This document shows, in pieces, positions 17,840 to 32,738 of a stretch of DNA of 64,000 bases. Position numbers and translations under genes: made by a program. Each line of letters opens with the position of its first letter. The first letter of the stretch is position 1. Where the stretch lies: positions 32,001-96,000 of IMG/VR virus record IMGVR_UViG_3300020470_001313. The stretch is one strand, 5' to 3'. Under the pieces are notes generated by a model that had not been told where the DNA came from, made no database searches, and saw only the letters and a list, made by a program, of their open reading frames with translations. This DNA is from a virus.

Positions 17840-17868
17840 TTGACAAGATCAGGAATCCTCTATAGAAT
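17840..17868 (+). promoter_or_regulatory. Divergent sigma70 promoter (antisense to the uvsW operon)
   Basis: TTGACA-N17-TAGAAT, back-to-back with the gp55 promoter. Confidence 0.75.
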
Positions 17869-18351: not shown

Positions 18352-19806
18352 CTACCCTAACTTTACATCTATGATTTCATAATCAAATTTTTCATCTTTG
18401 TAAACTTTGACTCTTTCAAACAAATGGTTTAAAGTATAATTGTGAAATTGGTTTCGGGAGATGTTATCTGCAATATCATATAATACTGCTTGTGATTTGT
18501 TATCACCCTTTCTTAATACTCTACCAATTGATTGTAAGTTCCTCACTCTTGATTTACTAGGACTAGCAAAAATTACATTATGAAGGTTTTTTATATTGAT
18601 GCCTGTAGAAAAAGTTCCGTAGGATGCAACAATAATATTATCGTTGGTCTCCTCTGCTAGAGCTCTTATCTTCTCACGATCATCAACATCAACACCACCA
18701 TGAACTAAATGTACTGGTTGTGTTACATTACTATTTAGCAGATCATATAAAGGGAGTCCGTGACGCTCTACATAGTTAAAGAGAACTAACGTATTTCCGC
18801 GCAGATCTTTTGTTAATCTCATAATGAATTTGTTTCTCCGTTCATGAGAAACTAAGTATTCCATTTCTTCTTGATAAGTTTCAAATGGTATATAATCATG
18901 CTTCAATACTAGGATCTTGACCTTAAGACTAGCAACTTGACCTCTATCCATGAGAGTCTTAGTTCTAGTTACTTGAGAACATCTACCGAATAAACCTTCT
19001 AATACTAGTTGATTACATTCTGATCCATCAAGTGTGCCTGTAAAACCAATTCTATACTTGCACTTATGAAGCTTAGTCATTAACGTAGTAAGAGATTTGG
19101 CTTTGAAAAGGTGCGCTTCGTCACCTACGATAACATCAAATTGTTCAAACCATTTACGAGGTTGTTTATAAATTGACTGCCAAGTTGAAATAGTTACATA
19201 ATGATTAGTGTTCTTTGATTCACCTGCATAAATTTTGTAGCAGAATACATCTACTTTCCATCCATAATCAGCAAAGTCTTTATACATTTGCTCTACAAGG
19301 GATGTAGTAGGAACTACAATCAAAACTCTTCTATTAACATTAACATGAAAACGTACCAATGAATAAATCATCAAGGATTTCCCGCTGGCAGTTGGGGACA
19401 ATAGGAGTCGTCTGTTGTATCGTAGGGATTCGTATATTGCTCGGTATTGGTAATCGCGTACCTGTACAGGAAGACGTAAAGACTTTACAAACCCAGCCAC
19501 CGACTGAGGAGTTACAAACTGATTTTCCTCCAAAGGGAGGCCAAAGTGCTCGTTAGGTTCAAACTTATATTCATACCCTCTCTCCTGACACCAATCCTGT
19601 AGGTATTTTAATAACCCTACGTAAATATCTCCAGTGCCAGGAGAATACAATCTTATTTTACCATCCCATCTCCTATATCTTTTCGTCCTCTGTAAAAACT
19701 TTGCAGATGGTACTTCAAAAGTAAAGTAATCTGAGAGTTCATGGTGAACATGCTGCTCCGCATCTACTGTAAGATAGACTTCGTTCTTCTTTTTGATTGT
19801 GATCAC
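18352..19806 (-). CDS. uvsW: RNA-DNA/DNA-DNA helicase
   Basis: SPTASGKS, DEAH, TGT, QSIGRVLR; probable GTG start 19806. Confidence 0.96.
   Translation of the reverse strand: MITIKKKNEVYLTVDAEQHVHHELSDYFTFEVPSAKFLQRTKRYRRWDGKIRLYSPGTGDIYVGLLKYLQDWCQERGYEYKFEPNEHFGLPLEENQFVTPQSVAGFVKSLRLPVQVRDYQYRAIYESLRYNRRLLLSPTASGKSLMIYSLVRFHVNVNRRVLIVVPTTSLVEQMYKDFADYGWKVDVFCYKIYAGESKNTNHYVTISTWQSIYKQPRKWFEQFDVIVGDEAHLFKAKSLTTLMTKLHKCKYRIGFTGTLDGSECNQLVLEGLFGRCSQVTRTKTLMDRGQVASLKVKILVLKHDYIPFETYQEEMEYLVSHERRNKFIMRLTKDLRGNTLVLFNYVERHGLPLYDLLNSNVTQPVHLVHGGVDVDDREKIRALAEETNDNIIVASYGTFSTGINIKNLHNVIFASPSKSRVRNLQSIGRVLRKGDNKSQAVLYDIADNISRNQFHNYTLNHLFERVKVYKDEKFDYEIIDVKLG
19359..19556 (+). CDS. Candidate antisense single-TM protein inside uvsW
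   Basis: Basic N-terminus, TM-like segment, Pro/Gln/Thr tail; local uvsW codon anomaly. Confidence 0.45.
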   Translation: MNKSSRISRWQLGTIGVVCCIVGIRILLGIGNRVPVQEDVKTLQTQPPTEELQTDFPPKGGQSAR

Positions 19807-19808
19807 AG

Positions 19809-20237
19809 TTACATACCAGCTTGGAATTTTTCCCAATCAATAGCACTCTTGATGTGGAAGCCTCGGTTCTGAATCATACGGATAATTGAATCCAAATAAT
19901 TCATACATGTTTCTATGTATGCAAGTTTGGATCTGGTCTTAATAACCTCTGTGTCTGCGTTTATAAACGTTTCTACTTCATCTCTATTAGTTAATTTCAA
20001 ATCAAAAGGCACCTCACGGTATGCTACCGCAGGTGCTTTGCCTTTATAATATTTCCATTTATCACGAATTAAGGTATTTAATTTACCTTCTGTTTCAATC
20101 TTCATACCAGAGAATACATTAATATACTCATAGTATTTCGCATGAAGACTAGCGATCTTAACAGATTCTTCAGAGTATAAGTCAGGTTGAATCTGACTAT
20201 CTACTCTCCACTGTTCTTGGATAGTCTCCAGATTCAT
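19809..20237 (-). CDS. uvsY: Recombination mediator
   Basis: LHAKY, KWKYYKGKA, NRGFHIKSAIDWEKF. Confidence 0.93.
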   Translation of the reverse strand: MNLETIQEQWRVDSQIQPDLYSEESVKIASLHAKYYEYINVFSGMKIETEGKLNTLIRDKWKYYKGKAPAVAYREVPFDLKLTNRDEVETFINADTEVIKTRSKLAYIETCMNYLDSIIRMIQNRGFHIKSAIDWEKFQAGM

Positions 20238-31082: not shown

Positions 31083-32738
31083 TCAGCGATACTCCCACAT
31101 ATACGCACGATCTCCGTACTCATCGGTGTGCCAAACGTCTCCATCCGCATCAACGAATGTATCTTCCGCAAGATGATCATCAATAAATCCGAAGGGTGCC
31201 ATATCCTGTTCTATATTTTCTTTCTGATCATCATATATTCTTTGACGGACATCATTGTCATTCATTTCTCTGAAGTATGGTTGTAATGCCAACCATGCAA
31301 ATATAACCAGAGTCATCGCTAGATCATCATTACATCCATCCTCTGCCTCAAAAGATTTACCCTTTTGAATGAACGTAGTAAGTTCTGATATTATGTCGTA
31401 GTCTGAGATTAAGAGTTTATCTTCTTCTATTAATGCTTTTAAATTAGAGCATCCAATCTGTTTAACAGTGGTACTCATCTTAACACCCATCTGGGTTTTT
31501 GTTCCTGAAAATCCTTGTCCTACTACCTGACCTGCTCTACCTCTCATAGATGCCATAAGAAGATTATCATACTCCAAATCAAAATGTATAATGTCAGCAA
31601 CCTGTCCACCAACATCATTTACTTCACATAGAACAAAAGCATGATTATAATTTGAAGCAGTCTGAACTATAATATTAGGAAATAATAAAGGTTTTATAGT
31701 ATTGCTTCTATACTTAGCAACAAGTTTATATGGGAACGTGGTTGTATCTATAACTGTGAATGCAGAATAGTCAGCAGACACACCTCTAGCCACATCACAT
31801 GCTATAACATATTGATGATCTTTAATTGCTTCTTCATATATATCCAGACCAGCATTTGATTTAACAGCATCATCATATGCTAAAACTTTTAACTTACTTG
31901 GTGAGATGAGAGTGTCAACAGATCCTAAGAACTCACACTCAAACTCAACTTTGAACTGTTGTTCAGATGTATTAGCAATAGTCTGGGCTTTCCATTTATC
32001 ATCTCTGCCTGGAACTTCAGACCAATGCACTTCTGTATTTACATACTCATTTTTTCCACGTTCTGAATCATGCCACAATTTGTAGAACATGTTCATACCA
32101 TGTGGTGTGGATATAATTATAACCTTGGTTTTCTTACCAGAAGATATAGTAGGATATACAGAGGAGAAGAACTCATCTGCAATATGTGTAGGAACGAACG
32201 CGAACTCATCTAAGAATATAACGTTGAATGACATACCACGAACAGCACTACTAGATGTAGATGCTGCCATGATCTTTGAACCATTCTCTAATTCTAGACT
32301 ACCTCGGTTCCAATTTACCACCCCTTGCTGTAACCACTTCGGTAAGTGTTCGTATGATTTTTGTAACCTCCCCAACATCTCCCGCGACGTTGCCGCTTTG
32401 TTGGCGAGGATCGCGACGTTAACCTCTTCATTAAATAATACGTACCATAGAAGGTAACTCGTAACAATAGTGGACTTCCCAGATTGCCTGGGTAGTTTTG
32501 CAATGTTGAATCTGTGCTCATGAAATTTATTCACCATTTCCTCTTGGAAAGGATACATGTTAAAAGGAACAAGACCCTCATCAAGAGAAACAATTTGAAC
32601 ATACTCACGAATGAAGTATGCAGGATCGCCAGCACATTTTAAAAATTCAGCAACCTGTTCTTTGGTAAAATTCTGAGCGACATTAGATCGCTTCAGATTG
32701 GGATTACCTAAGTAAATATCATTTGGGGCGGTTGCCAT
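31083..32738 (-). CDS. gp17: Terminase large subunit
   Basis: YLGNPNLK, PRQSGKST, IFLDEFAF, STPHG, DVARG, DDLAM. Confidence 0.99.
   Translation of the reverse strand: MATAPNDIYLGNPNLKRSNVAQNFTKEQVAEFLKCAGDPAYFIREYVQIVSLDEGLVPFNMYPFQEEMVNKFHEHRFNIAKLPRQSGKSTIVTSYLLWYVLFNEEVNVAILANKAATSREMLGRLQKSYEHLPKWLQQGVVNWNRGSLELENGSKIMAASTSSSAVRGMSFNVIFLDEFAFVPTHIADEFFSSVYPTISSGKKTKVIIISTPHGMNMFYKLWHDSERGKNEYVNTEVHWSEVPGRDDKWKAQTIANTSEQQFKVEFECEFLGSVDTLISPSKLKVLAYDDAVKSNAGLDIYEEAIKDHQYVIACDVARGVSADYSAFTVIDTTTFPYKLVAKYRSNTIKPLLFPNIIVQTASNYNHAFVLCEVNDVGGQVADIIHFDLEYDNLLMASMRGRAGQVVGQGFSGTKTQMGVKMSTTVKQIGCSNLKALIEEDKLLISDYDIISELTTFIQKGKSFEAEDGCNDDLAMTLVIFAWLALQPYFREMNDNDVRQRIYDDQKENIEQDMAPFGFIDDHLAEDTFVDADGDVWHTDEYGDRAYMWEYR

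Follow-up and report, generated by a model that had tools for sequence, protein, structure and literature searches.

The 64,000-nucleotide (nt) stretch analyzed here, hereafter the window, covers positions 32,001 to 96,000 of the IMG/VR virus record IMGVR_UViG_3300020470_001313. Its source is a T4-like cyanomyovirus, and the related records are Synechococcus and Prochlorococcus phages with approximately 70% nucleotide identity. We examined an open reading frame (ORF) on the plus strand of the window that is nested fully within uvsW, a helicase gene carried on the minus strand (Table 1). The ORF begins with ATG, comprises 65 codons, and ends with TAG. A first-pass annotation, produced by a model from the letters of the window, had placed the ORF at exactly this position with exactly this translation and had proposed that it is a genuine antisense gene overprinted on uvsW. 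Comparison with related phages supports this proposal, and we consider it likely that the ORF is a genuine gene whose product is a small membrane protein.

The product of uvsW was found to carry the UvsW_N, ResIII, and Helicase_C domains of Pfam, and the records of related phages label the homologous gene as UvsW or DNA helicase. The gene is flanked by uvsY on one side and by an Sm-like gene followed by gp55 on the other. The antisense ORF faces the end of the UvsW linker, the Q motif, and the Walker A motif (SPTASGKS). In this register, the second position of each antisense codon pairs with the third (wobble) base of a uvsW codon, so that a thymine at the third position of the sense codon (T3) yields an antisense codon of the form NAN. 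The first-pass annotation had correctly described such codons as giving polar residues, and we noted that they can also be stop codons.

Table 1. Features at the uvsW locus of the window. Clade A and the superclade are defined in the text.
Feature	Position	Strand	Description
Host gene uvsW	18352–19836	−	494 amino acids; superfamily 2 (SF2) helicase
Antisense ORF	19359–19556	+	Basic N-terminus, one predicted helix, acidic Pro/Gln-rich tail
ATG start of antisense ORF	19359–19361	+	Conserved across superclade
Conserved-open block	19357–19512		Sense codons 109–160; 52-codon run across superclade
Near-invariant wobble block	19357–19452		Sense codons 129–160; clade A and window
Predicted single helix	19368–19451	+	Residues 4–31; hydrophobic core at approximately residues 12–30
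Recombinant tract	19117–19536		83–100% identical to clade-A contig L001
Sigma70-like promoter	17840–17868	+	TTGACA-17-TAGAAT, 11/12; back to back with gp55 promoter
Weak proximal promoter-like site	19292–19320	+	TCTACA-17-TACAAT, 9/12; ends 38 nt before ATG

It had also been claimed that 20 consecutive uvsW codons opposite the hydrophobic segment lack T3. We located this run at sense codons 129–148 (19393–19452), in a gene where the T3 frequency is 37% and the second-longest T3-free run spans 10 codons. When synonymous codons were shuffled inside uvsW, a T3-free run of at least 20 codons arose with a probability of 0.0066. The corresponding probability for an ATG-initiated ORF of at least 65 codons was 0.019 in the same antisense frame and approximately 0.2 in any antisense frame, and for an open stretch of at least 70 it was 0.17. 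These values are unremarkable once it is considered that 64 kb were scanned, and the window taken alone is weak evidence for a gene. The case is decided by comparison with relatives and not by the statistics of the window.

A total of 160 loci (L001–L160) were gathered from IMG/VR and metagenomes, and 141 complete uvsW genes were codon-aligned. No closer relatives of the window were found than those with UvsW identities of up to 76% in IMG/VR and 74% in the metagenomes. A tree was built excluding uvsW codons 60–170, and all clades were taken from this region-free tree in order to avoid circular grouping. The superclade is defined as the monophyletic group that includes the window and whose UvsW proteins are at least 68% identical to that of the window; it comprises 55 sequences. 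The antisense frame was found to be intact in these close relatives, as 54 of the 55 possess ATG at the same site followed by an ORF that is open for 51–108 codons, the sole exception being L002. Conservation counts given here refer to these homologous ORFs of 51–108 codons and not to the 65-codon form itself. None of the 87 more distant homologues carries the ORF, with either the ATG missing or stops occurring early.

Among the isolates, the ORF was present in P-RSM1 (92 codons), P-SSM4 (51), Syn9 (53), S-RIM2 (53), and S-RIM8 (51) and absent from P-SSM2, P-HM2, and S-SSM4, while Bellamy contained just a 41-codon frame with a different sequence. In Syn9 (DQ149023.2), the site opposite uvsW is approximately complement(122066..122227). 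On this comparison, the ORF is common to one large clade of T4-like cyanophages that spans several genera. Only uvsW is annotated at the site of the ORF in P-SSM4, P-RSM1, Syn9, P-SSM7, P-SSM3, P-RSM3, metaG-MbCM1, S-RIM2, and S-RIM8.

We assessed how the antisense frame is kept open. An antisense stop arises in this register when a sense codon ending in TT, CT, or TC is followed by a codon beginning with A. Across codons 110–160 of the superclade sequences, only 2 of 531 at-risk codon pairs formed a stop (0.4%). In this frame, the remainder of these genes gave 1799 of 4099 pairs (44%), and codons 110–160 of the distant homologues gave 250 of 881 (28%). This corresponds to approximately 0.04 antisense stops observed per superclade sequence, against approximately 4.3 expected. 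The codons used at individual positions follow the same pattern. Pro148 is encoded by CCA, CCG, or CCC and never by CCT, which accounts for 55% of Pro codons gene-wide, and Leu155 is encoded by all four of the safe codons (TTG, TTA, CTG, and CTA) and never by CTT or CTC. At Val117 and Val126, GTT occurs solely before CGN, with GTA or GTG before A, and GCT at Ala150 occurs solely before TCT. It was noted that GTT, CCT, GCT, and CTT appear only if the following codon does not start with A. This covariation between neighboring codons is as expected if stops are avoided, and a frozen sequence would not show it. On the region-free tree, the at-risk columns underwent at least 170 parsimony changes, and none formed a stop. 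In the distant homologues, by comparison, 9% to 90% of sequences carry the stop-forming pairs at these columns.

The start codon showed a comparable pattern. The ATG is the complement of a sense xCA|T junction formed by Ser or Ala at position 159 (TCA or GCA) and Leu160 (TTG or TTA). This xCA TTR configuration was kept in all 54 sequences through at least 14 parsimony changes among its four contexts, and Leu160 is never CTN, although CTN constitutes 57% of Leu codons gene-wide. We further examined conserved-open runs, defined as consecutive codons with a stop in at most 4% of the superclade sequences, in 20 gene-frames that consist of the five alternative frames of each of uvsW, the Sm-like gene, uvsY, and gp55. 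The 52-codon run of Table 1 was the single outlier and ends exactly at the ATG; no other run in uvsW exceeds 28 codons, and those in the other three genes reach 33 at most. In one subclade with ORFs of 92–94 codons, the tails add 65 at-risk pairs with no stops, and the stop position is shared. Taken from these comparisons, it is close to certain that selection holds the antisense frame open. They demonstrate purifying selection on the ATG, as well as selection that maintains at least 51 codons free of stops.

A second type of constraint was encountered in clade A, a subclade of the superclade that is monophyletic in the region-free tree. The wobble bases of codons 129–160 are nearly fixed in this clade, although its UvsW proteins are only 68–75% identical. 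Synonymous-codon identity within clade A peaks here at 0.85 compared to 0.57 expected (15-codon windows), which is the top peak in the gene. A Leu-Leu-Leu stretch is encoded by ctc cta ttg in all 14 sequences of the block, and codon 132 encodes Ala, Gln, Ser, Lys, or Arg with a third base that is always A. At codons 132, 137, 139, and 143 the UvsW residue varies while the third base is fixed, and the antisense residue is either unchanged or still hydrophobic. The T3-free run in the window is the local sign of this frozen wobble block.

The encoded peptide was then characterized. From a 44-sequence alignment, AlphaFold2 predicted a single helix (Table 1) followed by a disordered tail, with a mean predicted local distance difference test (pLDDT) score of 60 that rises to 75–80 across residues 11–30. 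The maximum Kyte-Doolittle hydrophobicity over 19 residues was 2.35 in the window, 1.85–2.35 in clade A, and 1.36–2.57 elsewhere. Hydrophobicity was compared in 24 representatives to a null conditional on an ATG and 40 open codons, and it lay above the null mean in all 24. The excess reached P ≤ 0.05 in 14 of the 24, including all ten clade-A representatives tested (the window among them). We found that the N-terminus is basic, with a net charge of +1 to +3 and no acidic residue in clade A, and that the tail is acidic, rich in Pro and Gln, and variable; in the window it includes the tryptic peptide TLQTQPPTEELQTDFPPK. A lone Arg or His within the hydrophobic stretch faces Tyr135 of UvsW. Since the two Tyr codons allow just CGT or CAT opposite, the genetic code forces a basic residue at this position. 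Comparison with the null demonstrates that selection favors a hydrophobic center in the predicted peptide.

Translation of the ORF would require a plus-strand transcript. The first-pass annotation had pointed to a plus-strand promoter at 17840, and we recovered it there as the sigma70-like site of Table 1, which ends 1490 nt upstream of the ATG. It points antisense into the operon of the Sm-like gene and uvsW. Such a site (TTGACA-17-TAnAnT) is kept 1.4–1.5 kb upstream in every superclade locus with enough flanking sequence and, at the same distance, in 80 of 83 distant loci, which have no ORF; essentially all T4-like marine phage loci examined thus carry it. No terminator-like site was seen on the plus strand between the promoter and the ORF in the window. 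The conserved promoter probably yields an antisense RNA that serves a separate function.

We considered the weak proximal promoter-like site as the ORF's own promoter and rejected this claim because of insufficient conservation. This site reads TCGACA-17-TATAAT (11/12) in a subclade of L012, L022, L023, L024, L030, and L095 and TCGACA-17-TACAAT in several other sequences. It was noted that the six sequences of this subclade, which have the longest ORFs, carry a Val-to-Ile change in UvsW that makes a perfect TATAAT −10 box. An upstream mini-ORF of five codons, whose TGA overlaps the ATG, was likewise set aside, being present in the window and not conserved.

The conservation of the promoter well beyond the clade that bears the ORF raises the question of whether the act of translation matters here and not its product, with ribosomes stabilizing the antisense RNA or limiting its extension into uvsW. 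In this way, the conserved early transcript could keep uvsW expression low until late infection. In T4, UvsW is made late, and its early production would undo the R-loops at origins, which would fit such a function. Outside clade A, moreover, the visible selection mostly concerns the ATG and the lack of stops, and the residues themselves show far less of it. However, the passage of ribosomes does not need the hydrophobicity that lies above the null mean in every representative, nor the 32 frozen wobble positions of clade A that conserve the peptide, and the longer versions of the ORF keep their tails open too. We therefore regard this explanation as improbable.

A further possibility is that the frozen block does not act through coding and instead forms an RNA structure, binds a protein, or is the target of a small RNA, for example, with the open frame arising as a by-product combined with common ancestry. 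This would account for the strongest nucleotide conservation being confined to approximately 95 nt and to clade A. A small plus-strand hairpin was noted inside the ORF at approximately 19398–19418 (ACAATAGG ... TCTGTTGT), and it keeps its pairing through each of three one-sided changes in L094 and L083. This hairpin is too weak to explain the conserved block. Across 129 nt, RNAalifold returned −10.5 kcal/mol for the plus strand and −5.3 kcal/mol for the minus strand, with no compensatory pairs on either strand. Rfam gave no match at the ORF region, and its sole weak match lies outside the ORF, at 19877–19940 (DsrA; E 0.62; 22 bits compared to a gathering score of 60). With these weak folds, the lack of compensatory pairs, and the lack of an Rfam match, RNA structure was rejected as the cause of the frozen wobble. 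Stop avoidance also persists where the wobble bases vary freely, through numerous changes and covarying codon pairs, so that a fixed element cannot be its cause, and the open block stops at an ATG that is itself conserved. From these comparisons, the non-coding explanation is largely refuted, and we hold it to be less probable than an effect of translation itself.

Least probable of all is a statistical artefact, in which local codon-pair or dinucleotide bias in the helicase motif and non-independent sequences mimic selection: the ORF and the T3-free run are just mildly unusual in the window alone, kinship among the sequences makes raw counts overstate independence, and the distant homologues also fall below the gene average at codons 129–160 (17% stop-forming pairs compared to 44%), but these homologues do form stops at the identical columns, the 44% control comes from the same sequences and frame and hence carries the same junction biases, the parsimony changes are separate events, and no other gene-frame has a comparable open run.

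Several observations weigh against a gene for a membrane protein. Two of the checks that the first-pass annotation had named came out divided: synonymous constraint at codons 129–160 is strong in clade A but was not seen in any other subclade, and the hydrophobicity, which exceeds the null mean in every representative, is not individually significant in 10 of the 24. The hydrophobic segment is clean only in part of the superclade, since some subclades have Lys, Glu, or Pro within it. Outside clade A, conservation of the peptide is poor. No family or standalone homologue was found in Pfam, PHROGs, a tblastn search against phages, a search of 5.8 billion proteins, or the Atlas; apart from four calls on short ENA contigs, all homology matches were to this ORF within uvsW genes. 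The distance from the conserved promoter to the ORF is 1.5 kb, and the proximal site is strong in some subclades only and not conserved overall. As the first-pass annotation had observed, no Shine-Dalgarno core precedes the ATG. Such a core within 20 nt of the start was found for 16 of the 49 window ORFs of at least 120 codons, leaving two thirds of them without one. Finally, the loss of the ORF in L002 and S-SSM4 indicates that it is dispensable.

If the ORF is indeed a gene, its product would be a small single-pass membrane protein, with the basic N-terminus facing the cytoplasm and the variable, acidic Pro/Gln-rich tail outside. It would be translated from a plus-strand transcript that starts either at the conserved distal promoter, which would make the transcript early, or at the weaker site just upstream. 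Since the promoter occurs much more widely than the ORF, the antisense transcript was probably there first, and the ORF would have arisen de novo on it. The messenger RNA (mRNA) of the ORF is fully complementary to that of uvsW, and thus the two might regulate one another. As to function, we can only guess at takeover of the host membrane, exclusion of superinfecting phages, or control of lysis timing. A more elaborate scenario joins these elements: the ORF would have been born de novo on an ancient, universally conserved early antisense transcript of the uvsW operon, the gene for the membrane protein would be swapped among phages through homologous recombination as a cassette within the essential helicase gene, and mutual silencing of the two mRNAs would serve as a switch between early and late timing. 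We consider this scenario rather unlikely.

The predicted peptide was compared to known classes of small membrane proteins. It has holin-like traits in its one predicted helix and its charged, predicted disordered tail. No holin, spanin, or lysis family was matched in Pfam or PHROGs, and the ORF is nested in uvsW and not in a lysis cassette. Small size and a predicted helix are also traits of type I toxins, and a transcript of the ORF would by its position be complementary to uvsW mRNA. Hok, TisB, and Ibs are similar in being small, hydrophobic one-helix peptides whose mRNA is fully complementary to a transcript of the same locus. However, their complementary transcript is a dedicated small RNA, whereas that of the ORF is the mRNA of a large conserved helicase, and the predicted peptide matches no family model.

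To our knowledge, the existence of protein genes nested wholly antisense within another gene is disputed for bacteria, and in tailed phages they are almost unheard of; annotation pipelines forbid them. One close likeness is HIV-1 (human immunodeficiency virus 1) asp, which is antisense to env and, like the uvsW ORF, is nested in an essential gene (PMC8781085, PMC10846101). Both products are hydrophobic, lack homologues, and are confined to one clade, with the membrane association of ASP paralleled by a predicted membrane location for the uvsW ORF, and both were recognized by depletion of stops and a conserved start relative to sister lineages (PMC8781085, PMC10846101). They differ in that the host here is a tailed phage with double-stranded DNA and not a retrovirus, in the register, and in length (51–108 codons compared to approximately 189 for asp). 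The expression of ASP is moreover backed by reported immune responses (PMC12568219), whereas the uvsW ORF is known from the comparison of sequences.

Antisense overlapping genes with ribosome profiling have been described in E. coli O157:H7 (PMC9927249) and as olg1 and olg2 in Pseudomonas aeruginosa (PMC8850804; reviewed in PMC7457138). These resemble the uvsW ORF as evolutionarily young, apparently coding ORFs that lie antisense within an annotated gene and were overlooked by annotation. They are known mainly from ribosome profiling and usually have narrow or weak phylogenetic support, whereas for the uvsW ORF the comparative evidence is strong and extends over several phage genera. Small, membrane-active, overprinted phage proteins are also represented by lambda Rz1 in Rz and phiX174 E in D (reviews PMC8227390, PMC7017920). 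However, Rz1 and E are read in a shifted frame from the transcript of their host gene, on the same strand, and the uvsW ORF lies on the opposite strand and needs a separate transcript. We found nothing relevant in the literature on cyanophage antisense transcripts or uvsW.

The evolutionary evidence at this locus is unusually clean, combining covarying stop-avoiding codons, a conserved start, and absence in the outgroups. The isolates that carry the ORF include cultured model phages, and mutations that are silent in uvsW can stop the ORF, so that the putative gene can be tested directly. If it proves real, abundant marine viruses would have one more membrane protein in their conserved gene set, an antisense transcript would be shown to be able to seed a new gene, and a second gene would be shaping the codons used across part of uvsW.

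The history of uvsW in the window was also examined. Outside the recombinant tract of Table 1, uvsW is only 57–75% identical to L001, and the window falls outside clade A in the tree built without the region. By these comparisons, uvsW in the window is a recombination mosaic. The tract ends approximately 20 nt before the stop codon of the window ORF, which explains why the ORF has 65 codons in the window and 92 in L001. It was noted that, by the rest of uvsW, the nearest relative of the window is L002, which has no ORF; recombination may therefore have restored the ORF in the window.

Two minor observations were made. Of the 49 window ORFs of at least 120 codons, 45 are encoded by the minus strand. 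Synonymous-codon identity also has a second peak at uvsW codons 186–250 (approximately 19087–19281), at 0.75 compared to 0.57 expected. This peak was seen solely in the non-clade-A sister subclades L003–L025; it could reflect recombination or a further element under constraint that lies upstream of the ORF.

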